Part shown: in pieces, positions 29,920 through 36,792 of the stretch
Position numbering within the stretch: position 1 is the stretch's first letter
Layout: each line of letters starts with the position of its first letter
Sequence record: NC_104726.1
From: a phage
Reading direction: 5' to 3' (one strand)
DNA: 64,000 nucleotides
Program-made: the position numbers and the translations under genes
The notes under the pieces: model-generated
The model's input: the letters and a program-made list of their open reading frames with translations, nothing else
Told to the model about the DNA's origin: nothing
Database searches by the model: none

Positions 29920-29996
29920 TGGTCTCCACGGAGTGATTCGAACACTCGACCTCCTGATCCCAAATCAGGCGCTCTACCAAGCTGAGCTACGCGGAG
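29920..29996 (-). tRNA. tRNA-Pro (anticodon UGG)
   Basis: manual fold: acceptor CTCCGCG/CGTGGAG, D arm GCTC..GAGC, anticodon loop TTTGGGA, T loop TTCGAAT, encoded CCA. Confidence 0.75.
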
Positions 29997-30007
29997 TATT
30001 TACTATT

Positions 30008-30082
30008 TGGTGGCCCTGGGTGGAATTGAACCACCGTCTGGCGATTATGAGTCGCTTGCTTGAACCTTCCAGCTACAGGGCC
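30008..30082 (-). tRNA. tRNA-Met (anticodon CAU; Met/Ile2 type undetermined)
   Basis: manual fold: acceptor GGCCCTG/CAGGGCC, anticodon loop CTCATAA, T arm GGTGG-TTCAATT-CCACC, encoded CCA. Confidence 0.7.
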
Positions 30083-30083
30083 T

Positions 30084-30159
30084 TGGTGCTGATGGCAGGA
30101 CTTTAACCTACAACCTATTGATTACAAATCAATTGCACTACCGATTTTGCTACATCAGC
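30084..30159 (-). tRNA. tRNA-Thr (anticodon UGU)
   Basis: manual fold: acceptor GCTGATG/CATCAGC, anticodon arm ATTGA-TTTGTAA-TCAAT, encoded CCA. Confidence 0.7.
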
Positions 30160-30164
30160 AAAAA

Positions 30165-30263
30165 GGTGCTAGGTGATGGAATCGAACCACCTATGTATTC
30201 AACGACTACCTCGTCTATTTTCAGGATTAAAAATCCTCGCCCTTGCCAAAGGGCTTACCTAGC
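30165..30263 (-). tRNA. atypical tRNA-Lys (anticodon UUU) with ~29-nt extra hairpin in variable region
   Basis: acceptor GCTAGGT/ACCTAGC, D arm GCCC-TTTGGCAA-GGGC, anticodon arm AGGA-TTTTTAA-TCCT, T arm GGTGG-TTCGATT-CCATC; 99 nt, extra segment AAAATAGACGAGGTAGTCGTTGAATACAT between anticodon and T arms. Confidence 0.5.
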
Positions 30264-30361
30264 TCAGTATGTTGACCATGTTGCTAGTCGGCGATGACGA
30301 CTGTAACATTTGATAATCCGGTTCTGCTTCCGACTTTCGCTTAATTACAAGGTCAACAATG

Positions 30362-30452
30362 TGGCGGAGAGTAATGGAATCGAACCATCATCGAGTCATC
30401 CTCAACGGGACGGTTTTCAAGACCGCTTGAGCACCATTGCTCCCTACCCTCC
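30362..30452 (-). tRNA. tRNA-Ser (anticodon UGA), type II
   Basis: acceptor GGAGGGT/ACTCTCC, anticodon arm GCGGT-CTTGAAA-ACCGT, long variable arm, encoded CCA. Confidence 0.7.
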
Positions 30453-30566
30453 TTTATAAATAATACTGATAATGACACTGATTTTCGAGCAGTTAGTGAC
30501 TAGTATAAACGACGATAAATATCAATGCCATTATCTGTATTATTTATGCATCTAAAAATATAAATT

Positions 30567-30653
30567 TGGTGGGGAGTGGTGGAGTCGAACCACCCGAGTC
30601 GCAATGACAATAGATTTACAGTCTACACCGCTACCTCTACGGGATAACTCCCC
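30567..30653 (-). tRNA. tRNA-Tyr (anticodon GUA), type II
   Basis: acceptor GGGGAGT/ACTCCCC, anticodon arm GTAGA-CTGTAAA-TCTAT, long variable arm, T arm GGTGG-TTCGACT-CCACC, encoded CCA. Confidence 0.65.
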
Positions 30654-30657
30654 AATT

Positions 30658-30732
30658 TGGCACCCCGTACTGGACTCGAACCAGTGTCAACGGCTTAGAA
30701 GGCCGCTGCTTTATCCACTAAGCTAACAGGGC
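30658..30732 (-). tRNA. tRNA-Arg (anticodon UCU)
   Basis: acceptor GCCCTGT/ACGGGGT (two G-U pairs), D arm GCTT..AAGC, anticodon arm GCGGC-CTTCTAA-GCCGT, encoded CCA. Confidence 0.65.
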
Positions 30733-30828: not shown

Positions 30829-31167
30829 TTAACTATTGCCAACAGGCTGTATTTCTGTGGTGAATGGCATAAAAGGTGCTGGTTTTTCAGCCTCTTCTAC
30901 TACCACCTCTTCCTCTTCACCAAACATCTCATCATATTCTTCCTGCATTCGGTCTGCCTTATCAAGAACATACTCTGCAATGCTTTGACGAATATTTTGT
31001 TTGGTTTTCGGGTCCAACATCAGCTCTCTTAAAACTTTGTGAGCTTCTGGAACCATCGCTATAAAAGATTCCTTCATATCAAGGATGTTCTTCTCTAGCT
31101 GAATGGCGTTGGACTCCTCTTTCAGAGGTCTGCCTCTACGGCGACGCTTTTTAGTTGTATCCGCCAT
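30829..31167 (-). CDS. small DNA-binding protein with AT-hook-like motif (possible terminase small subunit or regulator)
   Basis: trimmed to Met at 31167 (GGAGGA RBS); KKRRRRGRPLKE motif; acidic C-terminus. Confidence 0.4.
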   Translation of the reverse strand: MADTTKKRRRRGRPLKEESNAIQLEKNILDMKESFIAMVPEAHKVLRELMLDPKTKQNIRQSIAEYVLDKADRMQEEYDEMFGEEEEVVVEEAEKPAPFMPFTTEIQPVGNS

Positions 31168-31830: not shown

Positions 31831-32040
31831 TCAACAGATTCCGGCCTTATACTTCCTGTCTGCGTATTCTTTAATCGCAACCTCATCTGCATTAGTGACC
31901 AGGTCTTCAAAGTAACCCTCAAGCTCCTCGTCAATGTCAGGAGACCAGCTCTTTTTCCTGTCAGTGTGAATTGCAGACTTGTTGAACTTATTACAGTTCT
32001 TTGCTACCGGGTTGTTCATTAAGCGCTCCTCAGCGTTCAT
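31831..32040 (-). CDS. hypothetical protein
   Basis: 69-aa ORF. Confidence 0.3.
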   Translation of the reverse strand: MNAEERLMNNPVAKNCNKFNKSAIHTDRKKSWSPDIDEELEGYFEDLVTNADEVAIKEYADRKYKAGIC

Positions 32041-32608
32041 AGTAAATCTTATTTAACATTACCTCATCCTTTGCAGAAAGGATATCAAGATATGCATCAC
32101 CAAATCTTCCTGCAACAACCTCTGCATGATACATCACTTCGTTAACATCGTCAAGAGTGATAACCGGATGACCATATCTTTCTGAATATTGTCTCAGGGT
32201 GCGATGTAACGAGTCGTCATCATATGCAGACTTTTTAATATCACAAACACGACGAATAGCCTTGATGTCGAAAAAACCTGTGCGATACCACCCAAGAAAA
32301 AGGTTTCGTGCAGTGTCAACATCTACATTGATACCATCAAGAACCTTATCTACAAGATAGCTGTCATCCTTTGGACCAGCGTCCTTAGTGCGAATGTAGT
32401 TGCCATCTTTTCCAGGCGACATCTCCTTCTCATCCCCAACCTGCATGCCATCATTTGGCGGTGTTAGCCACTTATCCGGATGCTTACGATCACGAGCGTT
32501 AGAATGATTACGCTGGAAACCGGGCTTCCACTTGAAAGTTTTCTCCATCTGTTCTTCATTCTGATAACGTTTTGCAATCTTTTCACGGTCATCTTTGCGT
32601 GAACCCAT
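32030..32608 (-). CDS. hypothetical protein
   Basis: 192-aa ORF with GAAGAGGAGG RBS; long non-coding leader upstream. Confidence 0.4.
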   Translation of the reverse strand: MGSRKDDREKIAKRYQNEEQMEKTFKWKPGFQRNHSNARDRKHPDKWLTPPNDGMQVGDEKEMSPGKDGNYIRTKDAGPKDDSYLVDKVLDGINVDVDTARNLFLGWYRTGFFDIKAIRRVCDIKKSAYDDDSLHRTLRQYSERYGHPVITLDDVNEVMYHAEVVAGRFGDAYLDILSAKDEVMLNKIYYER

Positions 32609-33000
32609 AGCTGCCTCCTCTTCAAGTTATAGAAAAACTCACTGTATCGCTTTGTAACGAGCTTTTCTATCAAACTGGTGCGATTGCATTACCTGGTATA
32701 GTTTATATAGTTGTGGAGCGATTTAGGGGCCTTCTTGTCAGTTTCCACACATAAACTTCATCCAAGCTCGCGCGGGAGACTCTCAACCGACTCCTTACGG
32801 CGCTGGCAAGCTTTCGTCGGTGGTCCACATCAGTGCTCGGCCTTTGGCCTGCGCTATCGCTTCGCTCCCACACATGTTAACAGACCTGCATGTATGAACT
32901 TCTGTTATTGTGTGCACCAAGGAGGCCCGGCATCTCGCCCCTCGTAGGCGAGTGCCAATGAAGGGCCGACACTGCCCATAGTAAGTAATAAATTTAAAAC

Positions 33001-33070
33001 ATGGTACTTAGGATCTAGTATATTCTACATAAGTTAAGTATATGTACTTAGTACCATAAGTACTAGATCT
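33001..33070. repeat. AT-rich ~70-bp imperfect palindrome
   Basis: nested inverted repeats ATGGTACT/AGTACCAT and GGATCTAGTA/TACTAGATCT. Confidence 0.5.
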
Positions 33071-33110
33071 TTTATTTTTTATTATTTAGTTATTTTAGTT
33101 ATATTCTTTA

Positions 33111-33194
33111 TGTGTCCGTATCACGGACAGTTAGTGTCCGTATTACGGGCAGATGTGTCCGCGTGACGGACAGTAGTGTCCGTATCACGGACAG
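33111..33194. promoter_or_regulatory. array of four tandem 21-22-bp units each containing a 17-bp palindrome (operator/iteron-like)
   Basis: TGTCCGTATCACGGACA (33113-33129), TGTCCGTATTACGGGCA, TGTCCGCGTGACGGACA, TGTCCGTATCACGGACA (33177-33193); centre spacing 22/21/21 bp. Confidence 0.6.
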
Positions 33195-33268
33195 TTAATA
33201 GTATCCGTTCCATGGCGAACATAAAACATACGAATCCTTATAGTACAGATATTTAAGTTTTTACTGGT

Positions 33269-33619
33269 CTAACCAGTTGTTGACATCCGAATAACTTCTT
33301 CTGGTGGCAAAACTTTGGAAAATGTGCATCTTTTACCTCTCCCTTGTGTGGATGTTTCAACCACTCCTGCACATTCTAAAGTTTTAACGCACGCTGCTGC
33401 TTTTGTTTTCTTTATCCCAACATCTGCTGCAATTTTCCTTGTGCTTGGTGTGAAGCGTGAATTTCCTCCAAGCTTATACCAGTTGTGCAGGTAGCAGTAT
33501 ACGATCTTGTCATACAAGTCAAGAACAACAACCTCCCCAGTTGTGTCATTCAAAACTTTTGACATAGATAGTATTTCAAGGGGGACTTTAAGATATAGCA
33601 GCTTATCCCCATCTTTCAT
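33269..33619 (-). CDS. putative HTH DNA-binding protein
   Basis: 116 aa; segment TPSTRKIAADVGIKKTKAAACVKTLECAGVVE resembles a helix-turn-helix; gene ends 75 bp from palindromic site array. Confidence 0.35.
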   Translation of the reverse strand: MKDGDKLLYLKVPLEILSMSKVLNDTTGEVVVLDLYDKIVYCYLHNWYKLGGNSRFTPSTRKIAADVGIKKTKAAACVKTLECAGVVETSTQGRGKRCTFSKVLPPEEVIRMSTTG

Positions 33620-33666
33620 ATCTCCTGATTCTCCTTGTGTGGCAATTTTCTTTAAAATAGCAGGGA

Positions 33667-34221
33667 TTACTCCCTGCTGTCAATATCAAAACTCATTGCA
33701 ATACGGTATGCCTCTTCTAATTGTAAGAGTCTCCCCCACACATCCCAACCGACATCAAGCTGCCTGCCAAACAACTGTTGTGTGGTTCCGTGAGCATGAC
33801 CGAACAGTTGGACTGATCCGTGAGGCTTTCTGTTCCACTTTGCAAACTGGTAATGGCTCATACAGATCAAATTCTTGTTGTGGCGAAGCTCGTAATAATC
33901 TACAACCTCATGACCGAACTCTTTCATAATTCTGACAGTCGTCCTTGTGTCATGGTTGCCACGAACAAGAATAATATGTCCGTTCAACATATTTAGAATA
34001 TCTGGAAGTAAGTTGTTGATATTCTTATCATTAGTGCACGCAATATCTCCCAAGTGGAACACAGTGTCTGCAGGTGACACAACAGAGTTCCACTCGGCGA
34101 TGATTCCCGCATTCATACTGTCAAGATTGTGATCATACTGAGATCTGTGTTTTTGACATGAATCAAACTCCATGACCCGCTGGTGGAGAAAGTGTGTGTC
34201 GCTTGTTACAAAGTATTTCAT
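33667..34221 (-). CDS. calcineurin-like metallophosphoesterase (Pnkp-type phosphatase candidate)
   Basis: ORF 33667..34326 trimmed to MKYFVTSDTHF; motifs DxH (SDTHF), GDIA, GNHD, GHAHG. Confidence 0.6.
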   Translation of the reverse strand: MKYFVTSDTHFLHQRVMEFDSCQKHRSQYDHNLDSMNAGIIAEWNSVVSPADTVFHLGDIACTNDKNINNLLPDILNMLNGHIILVRGNHDTRTTVRIMKEFGHEVVDYYELRHNKNLICMSHYQFAKWNRKPHGSVQLFGHAHGTTQQLFGRQLDVGWDVWGRLLQLEEAYRIAMSFDIDSRE

Positions 34222-34228
34222 ACATTCC

Positions 34229-34639
34229 TCATTTAAGTTTAATGCAGTTTTTAAGCTGGCGTTCCATACGATCCACAACCTTGTCTGGAACATCATGAAT
34301 GCTTTTATTACCGTGGCGGTTTTCAACCACGATCACGGTATAACTATACCCATGAGTGATTGCCATGTCAACATATTCCTGCACATGTTTTTCTTTTGTA
34401 AACGTATTACTTACCACGATACGGTCGTATCCCATACGCATCATATCTTCTACGTTATCTTTGCACCATTTTGCTGCGAGTGTTACTTTACTTGCATCCC
34501 AGTTGTAATTGCCGTCATCGTCATACCAGAACATGTCGTTCTCAAAATGTGGATACAGACCCTCTAAAGATAGCGCATTTGCCAGTGTTGATTTGCCAGA
34601 CCCTGGTAGACCACGCACGATATATAGCATTTTAGACAT
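34229..34639 (-). CDS. P-loop polynucleotide-kinase-like protein
   Basis: trimmed to MSKMLYIVRGLPGSGKST (GGAGGG RBS); Walker A close to T4 Pnk GCPGSGKST; small single-domain kinase. Confidence 0.55.
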   Translation of the reverse strand: MSKMLYIVRGLPGSGKSTLANALSLEGLYPHFENDMFWYDDDGNYNWDASKVTLAAKWCKDNVEDMMRMGYDRIVVSNTFTKEKHVQEYVDMAITHGYSYTVIVVENRHGNKSIHDVPDKVVDRMERQLKNCIKLK

Positions 34640-34667
34640 AGCGACCCTCCGTTTTAATTTCAACGGT

Positions 34668-34696
34668 AGTATACCTAACTGTTTTGTTAATTTCAA
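34668..34696 (-). promoter_or_regulatory. sigma70-like promoter for kinase/phosphoesterase genes
   Basis: minus strand TTGAAA-17 nt-TATACT; back-to-back with plus-strand TTGACA at 34700. Confidence 0.45.
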
Positions 34697-34699
34697 GTG

Positions 34700-34730
34700 T
34701 TGACACTAAGTTATTTGTGTGGCAGGATAG
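34700..34730 (+). promoter_or_regulatory. candidate promoter for RNA ligase gene (weak -10)
   Basis: TTGACA at 34700-34705; downstream GGATAGACT as imperfect -10. Confidence 0.3.
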
Positions 34731-34739
34731 ACTGACAAA

Positions 34740-35675
34740 ATGACAAATGAGGAACATATAATGAAGTATTTTAATGCAGACGACCTAGTTGACAAAGGTC
34801 TTGCAACCAGTAGGTATTACCCAGATCTCGGGTTAAAGATCTATAAATATGCTAGAAAAGTATTTTACAACAATTTATGGCATTTGTCCCCTCGTTTACT
34901 GGAGTGCCGAGGCATTGTTGTAGGTAATGAAGGAAATGTTGTGGCATGGCCCTTCACAAAAGTGTTTAACTTGGGAGAAAACTCCACCAACCTGCCTGAC
35001 AATAAGCTTGTGACTGCGGTAGAGAAAAAGAACGGATTCCTTGGTGTGGTATCATCTCATAAAGGTGACCTATTGTTCTCAACAACCGGGTCTCTTGATT
35101 CTCCATATTGTAACCTTGCAAAGGAAACCATCCAAGAGCAATGTGGTAATTTAGATCTTATCAAGAAGGTTATGGGCAATGAAAACATGACATTCATGTT
35201 TGAAATTTGTCACCCTTCAGATCCGCATATTGTTCAAGAAGACCATGGCGCATATTTGATAGGTTGCAGATATAATGATTCTGGAATAATGCTACCAGAA
35301 GCAGCTTTAGATGGGATTGCCAAATACCTTGGTGCAAAACGTCCTAACACTGTGCGTGAAATTCCGTTCAGCTATGCAAAAGAATTAGCTGCAGAAACAA
35401 GAGGTGAAGGGTATATGATTCGTAAGCCTTACTACCCTTATGATCTGCAGCTGAAGATCAAGTCTCCATACTATCTGGCACGGAAGGCAGTAATGAGGGG
35501 TAAAGCTTGGAAGATTTGGGATGATGATATCTTTAAACGTGTTGACGAAGAGTTTTACGGTATGGTAAAATTTATTCGTAGCAACTATACAGAAGATGTG
35601 TGGAATTGCTTATTAGAGCAGGAGCGTCGTGAGATACTGGACTACTATTTCCACAACGAGGACTATATGCAATGA
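34740..35675 (+). CDS. rnlA: RNA ligase 1 (T4 RnlA-like)
   Basis: 311 aa; LLECRGIVV and VFNLGEN match T4 Rnl1 ALECRGIMF / FFNLNEN; nucleotidyltransferase motif I KKNG; motif V LKIKS. Confidence 0.7.
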   Translation: MTNEEHIMKYFNADDLVDKGLATSRYYPDLGLKIYKYARKVFYNNLWHLSPRLLECRGIVVGNEGNVVAWPFTKVFNLGENSTNLPDNKLVTAVEKKNGFLGVVSSHKGDLLFSTTGSLDSPYCNLAKETIQEQCGNLDLIKKVMGNENMTFMFEICHPSDPHIVQEDHGAYLIGCRYNDSGIMLPEAALDGIAKYLGAKRPNTVREIPFSYAKELAAETRGEGYMIRKPYYPYDLQLKIKSPYYLARKAVMRGKAWKIWDDDIFKRVDEEFYGMVKFIRSNYTEDVWNCLLEQERREILDYYFHNEDYMQ

Positions 35676-36022
35676 AGAAGTGGATTGTGTGGCTTGATGA
35701 TTTTAGAGATCCGTCAGATTATGGACTCCCAGACGCTCTGTGGCTAAAGAATTCTTCTGAGTTTATGGATTTTCTTAATGATAAGAGAAAGCTCTACAGA
35801 CGCGTATCTGAGTGGTATTTTGACAATGATCTAGGTGAAGTGCTTGAAGGGTACGACTGCTTCTCTGCGCTAGAGGAGAAACTTGTATTCGGAAAGCCAC
35901 CACTTATTGACAACGTGATTATTTTCGTGCATACTTCTAATCCATCGGCAGCTCGTAAATTTATGCTTGCTGCTGACTCATTCAAGAAGTTTGGAATAGA
36001 GATTAAACAAAACATCTACTGA
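35672..36022 (+). CDS. hypothetical protein, receiver-like alpha/beta fold suspected
   Basis: 116 aa; N-terminal MKKWIVWLDDFRDP resembles beta1-DD of CheY-like receiver; translationally coupled (ATGA) to RNA ligase. Confidence 0.3.
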   Translation: MKKWIVWLDDFRDPSDYGLPDALWLKNSSEFMDFLNDKRKLYRRVSEWYFDNDLGEVLEGYDCFSALEEKLVFGKPPLIDNVIIFVHTSNPSAARKFMLAADSFKKFGIEIKQNIY

Positions 36023-36030
36023 GGACACTT

Positions 36031-36792
36031 ATGCGACGACTGATTATTATCTCCGGTGCTGGTTTGAGCGCTGAATCTGGTATTCCCACTTTCCGATCTG
36101 GTAGCACTGCAATGTGGGAGAATTTCAGCATCGATGAGGTGTGCAACATCCACACCTTTGCCAAGAATTACTATAAGGTGCATGACTTTTACAATGCACG
36201 TCGTGTAGCTCTGGGCAGTGTTGATCCTAACCTTGCACATCTTCGGATCGCTGAGTGGTATTCCCGCTGGTCTGGTCGTGTGATCAACCTTACCACCAAT
36301 GTAGATGATTTGCTGGAGCGTGCTGGTGTAAAACATGAAGATATTTTACATGTCCACGGGTATTTGCCTGAAATCACCTACGAAGATGCTGAAGGTAATG
36401 ATGTAATTAAAAATATCGGATACACGGAGGTAGATACAGGCAAGTATACCTGGGTTAAGCCCAATGTAGTGTTATTCGGTGAGGTTGCTCCTAAGTATAC
36501 AGACATGTATGACCTGTTGACATCTCTCACAAGCAATGATATGGTGATCCTAGTAGGTTGTTCTAACACAGTTATTAATTTTAACTGGGAATTGTTTCCT
36601 GCTACTTGTAAAGGCACAAAACTGCTGATTGTAAACAAGTATGACTCGCAGAGTGCAGATGGAAGTGGCATTTCACGTAGCGACCTTTATCAATATGAGG
36701 ATCGCGGGATCCCTGTATGGTTTAACGGTGCTGTTGACGCTTTCTCTGATAAAGCATTTATTGAAACTGTAGAAAACTTTATGGAACTTTAA
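36031..36792 (+). CDS. Sir2-family NAD-dependent enzyme (sirtuin-like, no zinc ribbon)
   Basis: 253 aa; GAGLSAESGIPTFRSG, TTNVDDLLERAG, catalytic HVHG, VLFGE; lacks CxxC...CxxC zinc-binding module. Confidence 0.7.
   Translation: MRRLIIISGAGLSAESGIPTFRSGSTAMWENFSIDEVCNIHTFAKNYYKVHDFYNARRVALGSVDPNLAHLRIAEWYSRWSGRVINLTTNVDDLLERAGVKHEDILHVHGYLPEITYEDAEGNDVIKNIGYTEVDTGKYTWVKPNVVLFGEVAPKYTDMYDLLTSLTSNDMVILVGCSNTVINFNWELFPATCKGTKLLIVNKYDSQSADGSGISRSDLYQYEDRGIPVWFNGAVDAFSDKAFIETVENFMEL

Follow-up and report, generated by a model that had tools for sequence, protein, structure and literature searches.

What is the function of the 660-bp gap at positions 32609 to 33268 in a stretch of phage DNA where every surrounding gene lies on the minus strand? 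The window, by which we mean the whole 64,000-nucleotide stretch that was analysed (sequence record NC_104726.1), comes from a Vequintavirus (rV5-like) coliphage. Its interval 32000-34400 matches Escherichia phage JLBYU08 at 100% identity and dozens of other Vequintavirus myoviruses at 98-99.8%. Read 5' to 3' along the minus strand, the genes encode a polynucleotide-kinase-like ATPase, a metallophosphoesterase and a 116-aa winged-helix protein; the gap follows, and then a 192-aa protein, small ORFs and seven tRNA genes. Public records label the gap 'repeat_region' at most, and a 56-aa ORF is annotated within it in the rV5 RefSeq record (ORF78 / gp074). The first-pass annotation had described it as a non-coding control region, with an origin or a packaging-recognition site as the alternative. 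Its statement that the minus strand holds no ORF of 60 aa or more is essentially right, as the sole one that touches the gap (32464-32673) lies mostly inside the next gene. From the sequence, we infer that the region is an iteron-type replication origin of rV5-like phages, built like the λ origin, and not a transcriptional control region, a judgement that we hold with evenly balanced confidence. What the analysis establishes is the anatomy of the region, the homology of the adjacent protein, the uniqueness and conservation of the sites, and a set of compensated helices.

The flanks of the gap and the part of it next to the winged-helix gene contain the following features, in window coordinates.

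33654 to 33683, minus strand: sigma-70-like promoter (TTGACA, 18-nt spacer, TG-TATTTT), just 5' of the winged-helix gene.
33269 to 33619, minus strand: gene for the 116-aa winged-helix protein, a putative origin-binding initiator that resembles the N-terminal domain of RepA_N-type initiators.
33198 to 33268, no strand: spacer from the winged-helix stop codon to the repeat array, the fastest-evolving segment of the locus.
33112 to 33197, no strand: four iteron-like units of 21 or 22 bp, to which dimers of the 116-aa protein would bind.
33070 to 33111, no strand: putative DNA-unwinding element of 42 bp and 7% GC, with TTTTATT and TTTTAGTTA repeats, adjoining the iterons.
33001 to 33069, no strand: AT-rich segment with two interleaved inverted repeats and two GATC sites, near-invariant among phages.
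32609 to 32678, minus strand: leader and ribosome-binding site (GAGGAGG) of the 192-aa gene.
32030 to 32608, minus strand: 192-aa gene, PHROG 12226, function unknown.

To assess the conservation of these segments, we aligned 12 versions of full length, taken from GenBank and from metagenome assemblies (89.8-99.7% identity), and calculated the mean pairwise diversity of each segment. Diversity was 0.028 in the repeats, 0.032 in the AT tract, 0.034 in the AT-rich inverted repeats and 0.055 in the GC-rich island described below, compared with 0.063-0.077 in the neighbouring genes; the 70-bp spacer that follows the stop codon reached 0.146. The repeats and the AT tract carry about half the variation of the neighbouring genes, and the low values of all three core segments indicate that the core is more constrained than coding DNA.

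The four units of the array occupy 33112-33133, 33134-33155, 33155-33176 and 33176-33197, at spacings of 22, 21 and 21 bp, and units 1 and 4 are identical. Each contains a 17-bp palindrome, TGTCCGT-N3-ACGGACA (33113-33129, 33135-33151, 33156-33172 and 33177-33193, with 0, 1, 1 and 0 mismatches, respectively), so that the earlier description of four units at 21-22-bp spacing, two perfect and two degenerate, is confirmed. Allowing up to three mismatches, the palindrome has 8 matches in the window against 1.33 expected, and 0 of 100 shuffles reached 8. Folded as single-stranded DNA, the array has a z-score of -6.9. Unit copy number ranges from 2 to 4 among phages through unit-precise deletions; such variation by whole units is iteron behaviour, and we count it in favour of an origin. 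Substitutions within the sites fall mostly in the central N3, and in the Aya group an inner-arm change (T..G to C..G) restores dyad symmetry. The array thereby has the at least three direct repeats of ~17-22 bp in helical phase that characterize origins of the λ ori and plasmid oriV type.

A candidate unwinding tract lies directly beside the repeats, with 33070-33111 abutting the array at 33112. Only 3 of its 42 positions are G or C, and the AT repeats that had been noticed here resolve into TTTTATT (×2.7) and TTTTAGTTA (×3.1). The adjacent segment, 33001-33069, had been described as a single AT-rich palindrome of ~70 bp. Its AT-rich inverted symmetry is real, but it consists of two interleaved inverted repeats, ATGGTACTTAG/CTTAGTACCAT (33001-33011/33047-33057) and GATCTAGTA/TACTAGATC (33012-33020/33061-33069), and as a single strand it folds no better than shuffled sequences (z = -1.0). 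A k-mer search of the genome for copies of the AT-palindrome motif returned nothing notable. Between 32601 and 33280 we found no TTATCCACA (at up to one mismatch), TTWTNCACA or WATCAANNNNTTR; DnaA and IHF consensus sites are absent from this interval. Boxes for DnaA and IHF are common at iteron-type origins but do not define them.

The gene next to the array is a candidate cognate initiator gene, homologous to known initiators. Its 116-aa product matches PHROG 12838, 'replication initiation protein', with E = 5e-80 and three other initiator PHROGs more weakly, and several RefSeq and GenBank records name it 'replication initiation protein'. Two Pfam matches fall just below threshold (DUF6945, 27.4 bits with a cut-off of 28; HTH_36, 24.5 bits with a cut-off of 25), and RepA_N (PF06970) is not among the matches at E up to 0.1. 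The closest PDB sequence found by phmmer is 4ro3_A (E = 3e-6). An AlphaFold model of moderate confidence (pLDDT 78.8) has the N-terminal winged-helix fold of RepA and DnaD N-terminal domains. Foldseek ranked 4ro3 first for this model (TM 0.65), followed by the N-terminal domains of staphylococcal plasmid RepA proteins (4pql, 5kbj, 4pt7 and 4pta), a Rep-DNA complex included. This domain spans nearly all of the 116 residues, and a C-terminal host- or replisome-specific domain is not present. The structure 4RO3 is the N-terminal domain of RepA from the Vibrio cholerae satellite PLE, which was placed in the RepA_N family by structure, BLASTP having given no sequence similarity (PMC7145576). As established by EMSA and deletion, the iterons that PLE RepA binds in the PLE origin are semi-palindromic direct repeats, which is the usual form of RepA_N iterons (Barth et al. 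2020, PMC7145576). Homology thus supports the earlier suggestion that the phased dyads bind a dimer, for example of the adjacent HTH product, as this protein is a predicted winged-helix relative of a RepA_N-type dimeric initiator domain. For the 30829-31167 product, which had been put forward as a second protein to try, nothing was found that connects it to the region.

Searches for more distant relatives of the 116-aa protein (a word-indexed search, full HMMER over 1.8 billion representatives and tblastn on phages) returned just Vequintavirus proteins of at least 87% identity and a few weak HTH_36/DUF6945 proteins, and a scan of IMG/VR returned no relatives. The contigs of two of the weak relatives (P0009 and P0011) are too short to reveal neighbouring repeats. 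In Mydovirus and Justusliebigvirus, which we compared by synteny via the phosphoesterase gene, gene order differs and the module is absent. As the module is confined to one genus, the origin reading draws no support from deep comparison.

In the mechanism that we propose, dimers of the 116-aa protein would bind the four dyad-symmetric iterons, whose spacing of two helical turns would place them on one face of the DNA. The resulting nucleoprotein complex would melt the adjoining 42-bp tract of 7% GC, and the phage's gp4-like primase-helicase and PolA-type polymerase would load at the melted tract. The GC-rich island would serve the origin as an accessory element in cis, for instance as a structure for priming or replisome entry, in minus-strand sense and as either RNA or single-stranded DNA. 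The initiator-iteron pair would be specific to each element, and the island would be the part common to the phage and to the satellite-like plasmids described below. Counted against an origin are the lack in the 116-aa protein of the C-terminal domain that is thought to recruit the replication machinery in RepA_N proteins and λ O, the sub-threshold Pfam matches without a RepA_N match, and the lack of a DnaA or IHF consensus.

Genome-wide, the cumulative GC-skew minimum lies at record position 133,976 (window position 34,664), 1.5 kb from the array at record positions 132,425-132,505, and coincides with the major divergence of transcription. The rV5 genome paper sought the origin by skew analysis and saw just transcription-linked shifts. 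As GC skew follows the direction of transcription, the position of the minimum fits an origin here but is not independent evidence for one. Beyond the window, at record 34.8-36.4 kb, lies a second non-coding region with ~12-bp CTGTTTACRC repeats of its own, which could be the origin instead or a further one.

Between the AT-rich segment and the leader of the 192-aa gene lies a GC-rich island, with a GC content of 55-59% at 32750-32950 compared with 23-30% at 33000-33150 and ~40% in the flanks. It had been described as GC-rich and stem-rich, and both attributes stand, the helices being compensated in the comparison with satellite-like plasmids. Its features are as follows.

32924 to 32967, minus strand: hairpin p1, with an outer stem GGCCC/GGGCC, an inner 10-bp stem and a conserved bulged A, shared with satellite L022.
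32869 to 32914, minus strand: variable hairpin p1b, with a CACACA...UGUGUG stem, ending in the recurrent motif UGUGUGGG.
32770 to 32829, minus strand: 60-nt f core, comprising UGUGGACC, helix A, GAAAGCUUGCCAGCGCCGKAAGGA, helix A' and ..AGAGUCUCCCGCGC.
32679 to 32734, no strand: short motifs shared with satellites, GGCCCCTAAATCGC at 32718-32734 and TGCGATTGCATTACCTGG at 32679-32696.

The island contains a 56-aa ORF on the minus strand and a 78-aa ORF on the plus strand. Every ORF is disrupted in at least one of the 11 variants, and the variable columns are spread 12/10/9 over the three codon positions; these broken frames and the lack of codon phase rule out a protein-coding gene, including rV5 ORF78 / gp074. 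In Rfam 15, the sole match of the region was rli43, at 21.9 bits against a gathering score of 100 and over the AT-rich part, and searches with a satellite and with the second non-coding region returned nothing. A plus-strand promoter that would read into the island (TTGCAT, 16-nt spacer, TATAGT, 32684-32711) was rejected, as the motif is inverted in satellites and the -10 element is not conserved in the Aya group.

About 290 bp of the island recurs in circular E. coli 'plasmids' of ~13.5 kb, as a sensitive search of E. coli genome and plasmid sequences showed. The shared sequence forms patches of 84-87% identity in the non-coding DNA of plasmids of 13.2-13.7 kb and of one 39.6-kb trimer, and homology with the phage runs in blocks from ~32,976 to ~32,680. 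In these plasmids TGCGATTGCATTACCTGG is inverted and forms a perfect palindrome, TGCAATTGCA. Scans of metagenomes for the f core added two more satellites and two more phages; matches to the f-core pattern in genome contigs and in one IMG/VR sequence were discarded as chance, lying inside GC-rich coding DNA. The plasmids carry genes for major capsid and tape-measure proteins, a baseplate protein with 54% identity to its phage counterpart, a protein 48% identical to another phage protein, a winged-helix protein of 288-306 aa and a small HTH protein, and none encodes an obvious terminase or integrase. These ~13.5-kb elements look like Vequintavirus satellites that persist as plasmids, and we refer to them as satellites. 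Our literature search found no paper on them. The hairpin element, its sharing and the satellite plasmids themselves appear to be undescribed, as judged from sequence analysis of few independent lineages. The origin-type protein and repeats are already in databases, the protein as an initiator on grounds of homology and the repeats under a repeat annotation.

Comparison of phage and satellites revealed compensatory changes in two helices of the island. Hairpin p1 has 15 pairs and is 98.7% paired; 2 of the 15 pairs have changed on both sides between phage and satellite L022 (G-C to U-A, twice), and changes among phage groups are in the loop. The f core, which occurs once in the phage genome, has the same sequence in the phage and in six canonical satellite loci (L022-L025, L031 and L033) except for the two 6-nt segments that form helix A (plus-strand positions 32816-32821 paired with 32786-32791). 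The phage has ACCGAC/GUCGGU in these segments, the satellites have GCUGCC/GGCAGC, and all six pairs form in every version. Three of the six have changed on both sides, and for one A-U to G-C change a phage lineage represents the G·U intermediate, the only sign that favours the minus-strand sense. In the divergent satellite L038, the same flanks (AUGUGGA and GAGUCUCCCGCGCG) enclose a third, 8-bp version of helix A, GUCCGGAU/AUCCGGAC; the inner loop of the f core is replaced, and further compensated pairs occur in other hairpin modules. In total, five pairs are compensated between phage and plasmid, in addition to the G·U intermediate and the third helix version. Compensated pairs in two helices argue that the island is a structured element, and one that is absent from Rfam.

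The number of independent lineages that contribute to this covariation is small. An 18-bp deletion at hairpin p1b in rV5 and A135 leaves CACACAUG...CAUGUGUG, which is again able to pair. The motif (U)GUGUGGG ends each satellite hairpin module and is present in three copies in the phage island. Two further structures were considered and rejected. A long-range helix predicted by RNAalifold (A3 columns 22-32/154-165), with one covarying pair, has no 3' partner in the satellite that carries p1, which keeps the local GGCCC/GGGCC stem. All pairs of a pseudoknot in the f core (GCGC/GCGC and GGA/UCC) are invariant and hence uninformative, and the inner loop is replaced in L038. Folding energy did not discriminate between strands, as both strands of the satellite element fold equally (z = -4.3 and -4.9). 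With stems that are almost purely Watson-Crick and strands that fold equally, the element may be structured as either RNA or single-stranded DNA.

The native context of the element in the satellites bears on its role. The satellites have 4-5 iterons with a 23-bp period and of several sequence types, followed by A/T-rich DNA and then by the shared element, which is the order found in the phage and which we count in favour of an origin. Satellites L023 and L024 differ in both the recognition helix of the HTH protein and the iteron type; L022 and L023 have the same iteron type and unrelated HTH proteins, which gives a mixed picture of whether iteron type covaries with the HTH protein. The number and order of hairpin modules also vary between satellites. 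As the island accompanies iterons in phage and satellites alike, whereas the iterons and initiators differ, we favour an origin-accessory role for it, for example in priming or replisome entry common to helper and satellite. It may further represent a new class of structured cis element, made up of UGUGUGGG-punctuated modules and a 60-nt core, that serves as the satellite's 'handle' on the replisome or packaging motor of the helper, although we regard this more specific idea as doubtful. If it is true, the origin would be modular: the initiator part would be private to each element, and virus and parasite would have the other part in common.

It is possible, if not what we would expect, that the island is instead a non-coding RNA gene or a cis-acting RNA (an antiterminator or a processing signal) that has nothing to do with replication and that satellites mimic or exploit, a reading compatible with an iteron origin. 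The GC content of the island is well above the genome mean, like that of the nearby tRNA genes, and its compensated helices pass through the A-U, G·U and G-C series on the minus strand. The unpaired motifs UGUGUGGG and GAGUCUCCCGCGC are conserved, and hairpin modules with the same motif are found in the second non-coding region, between a 25-mer shared with the satellites and a terminator-like hairpin. However, neither strand has a promoter or terminator bracketing the island, no Rfam family matches it, and near-pure Watson-Crick stems with equal folding of both strands would be unusual for an RNA gene. The strong sigma-70 promoters of the satellites are on the downstream side of the element and point away from it.

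Transcriptional control, the function first assigned to the gap, is in our view unlikely. The 116-aa protein would then be a regulator, and four cooperative dimers would form a roadblock or operator 3' of its own gene; it is similarly improbable that the array gates read-through from the early Pnk-phosphoesterase-HTH operon into the tRNA, lysis and structural genes. The layout would permit such gating, with the array placed between the promoter at 33683-33654 and the next gene on the same strand and no terminator between them. Many records name the gene 'putative transcriptional regulator', its product has weak Pfam matches to regulator-type HTH families (CodY, LexA and TrmB) and the C-terminal domain of initiators is missing. 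Its best experimentally characterized homologue, however, is an origin-binding initiator, and no sigma-70-like site, the promoter type that the scan covered, was found on the minus strand from 33654 to 32154 or on the plus strand of the region. The palindrome is not present at the gene's own promoter, whose equivalent is annotated as promoter P76 in the rV5 RefSeq record, nor, at up to one mismatch, in any other intergenic region of the 136.9-kb genome. At this threshold, the four sites of the array are the only ones in the composite genome, and two further sites with two mismatches are at the level expected by chance. Control of transcription would also leave unexplained both the adjoining tract of 7% GC and the same layout in plasmids that require an origin. 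Collectively, the initiator-type gene, the unique phased dyads downstream of it, the abutting AT tract and the lack of an overlapping promoter favour an origin over an operator array. Of the functions named in the first-pass annotation, the control region put forward in its headline is the weaker and the origin that it listed as an alternative is the better supported.

Its other alternative, packaging, we consider very unlikely. The part shared with satellites (the GC island and possibly the repeats) would be a pac site for headful packaging by the helper terminase, as terminase-less satellites must carry the helper's packaging signal, and the sole non-coding similarities found between phage and satellites are the ~290-bp element and one 25-mer elsewhere; moreover, three metagenomic contigs and one GenBank record stop within the repeat array or next to it. 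These ends, however, fall in tandem repeats, consistent with assembly breaks and copy-number variation, and leave the GC island untouched; pac sites that are known consist of double-stranded sequence, mostly within or beside the small-terminase gene, and none is nearby; the compensated stems point to single-stranded structure and not to duplex sequence; and as a pac candidate the 25-mer of the second non-coding region is just as good.

Read as an iteron-type origin, the region has counterparts among known systems. It would resemble λ ori and O in having four phased dyad repeats for winged-helix dimers, then an AT-rich tract of ~40 bp and then an inverted repeat, with the initiator gene at the same locus. 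Whereas λ ori lies inside the O gene, and O has a C-terminal domain that recruits P-DnaB, the phage array lies 75 bp downstream of its gene and the 116-aa protein has no C-terminal domain. Sequence similarity is lacking, and λ ori is not followed by a GC-rich hairpin element. In its order of iterons, AT-rich tract and GC-rich stem-loop segment, the region is also like the oriV of the broad-host-range plasmids RK2 and RSF1010, in the latter of which the ssiA and ssiB hairpins are single-strand initiation signals for a dedicated primase. Sequence relationship to these origins is lacking, and the element here, unlike theirs, is shared between a virus and its putative satellites. The island further recalls the single-strand origins ssoA and ssoU of rolling-circle plasmids and priming signals of the G4/phiX type, which are non-coding, strand-specific, heavily paired elements of 150-300 nt with short conserved unpaired motifs near a double-strand origin, but the RSB and CS-6 motifs of sso elements are absent here and there is no sign of rolling-circle initiation.

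The likeness to PLE is one of homology. The 116-aa protein is related to the DNA-binding domain of PLE RepA both in sequence, by the phmmer match given above, and in fold, and the PLE origin likewise belongs to a host element that relies on a phage replisome whose polymerase is PolA-type and whose helicase is gp4-like. According to the rV5 paper, ICP1 is among the phages with the closest polymerase homologues. Unlike the proteins of PLE and the RepA_N plasmids (pSK41 and pTZ2162), the 116-aa protein is a product of the lytic phage's own genome, has no domain beyond the N-terminal one and is not matched by Pfam RepA_N, and the iterons here centre on N3 rather than on a poly-A tract.

The shared element makes it likely that E. 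coli is home to a helper-satellite pair whose satellite is a plasmid with capsid and tail genes. With a defined 60-nt motif and a helix suited to disrupt-and-restore experiments, this pair could be used to probe what a satellite must copy from its helper. How PLE, a satellite of Vibrio phage ICP1, recruits the replisome of that phage is an open question (PMC7145576), and the present system could address the same question. The rV5-like phages are widely used as therapeutic and typing coliphages and have no mapped origin. A concrete origin with a 116-aa initiator would aid the engineering of these phages and help to explain the loading of a T7-like replisome in a large myovirus.

In two phages, rV5 and 'A135', the variable hairpin in the GC island of the non-coding locus is 18 bp shorter (window 32894-32911). 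The sequence left after the deletion, CACACAUG...CAUGUGUG, can still form a stem. Further along the locus, three metagenomic contigs (L019, L020 and L021) end, and the GenBank record MG065672.1 starts, inside or beside the repeat array of iteron-like units (window 33101-33197). These record ends are most simply explained by an assembly break in tandem repeats whose copy number varies; alternatively, they may be physical DNA ends.

A complete Vequintavirus genome, CP057073.1 (137,565 bp), stands in the database as a plasmid of E. coli from cattle faeces. Its identity over the non-coding locus is 97.7%, and its deposition as a plasmid may reflect a carrier state, pseudolysogeny or contamination. 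Eighteen GenBank records of the MG0656xx series, labelled 'Campylobacter phage', share 91-99.7% identity with E. coli Vequintavirus at the locus and are marked UNVERIFIED where inspected; their Campylobacter host label is doubtful.

The locus is adjoined by an RNA-repair-type gene set (window 33667-35675) comprising a Pnk-like AAA_33 kinase, a metallophosphoesterase and a T4 Rnl1-type RNA ligase; its promoter region, at about 34,640-34,740, is divergent. In Mydovirus and Justusliebigvirus the RNA-repair-type genes are co-oriented, and the HTH gene and non-coding module are absent. The window also contains a cluster of seven tRNAs (29920-30732), within which ARAGORN calls a tRNA with a four-base anticodon:

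30165-30263, minus strand: 99-nt tRNA with anticodon atcc and no assigned identity (ARAGORN); labelled 'tRNA-OTHER' in GenBank

A second non-coding region, of 1.6 kb, lies outside the window at 34,790-36,400 of the JLBYU08 phage record (L035), where transcription converges and cumulative GC skew reaches its maximum (34,460). It contains many CTGTTTACRC-type repeats of about 12 bp each, and both strands have hairpin modules with TGTGTGGG. The region may be the pac region, an additional origin or an RNA gene. It also holds a 25-mer, TGATATTTGAGAATTGTTAKAAGAA, that is common to all examined satellite-like plasmids, the elements that share the GC-island hairpin element with the phage.

Satellite-like plasmid records
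L022: NZ_CP020521.1
L023: NZ_CP043822.1 (trimer)
L024: NZ_CP178698.1
L025: NZ_CP035869.1
L038: CP134895.1
L031 and L033: metagenome contigs

These records form one family of circular E. coli 'plasmids' of about 13.2-13.9 kb, on which we found no paper in the literature. Neither a terminase nor an integrase is annotated in them. Their genes include those for a major capsid protein, a tape-measure protein, a baseplate protein with 54% amino acid identity to its phage counterpart, and winged-helix and HTH proteins, and they carry several types of iteron array. The family looks like a group of plasmid-borne Vequintavirus satellites.
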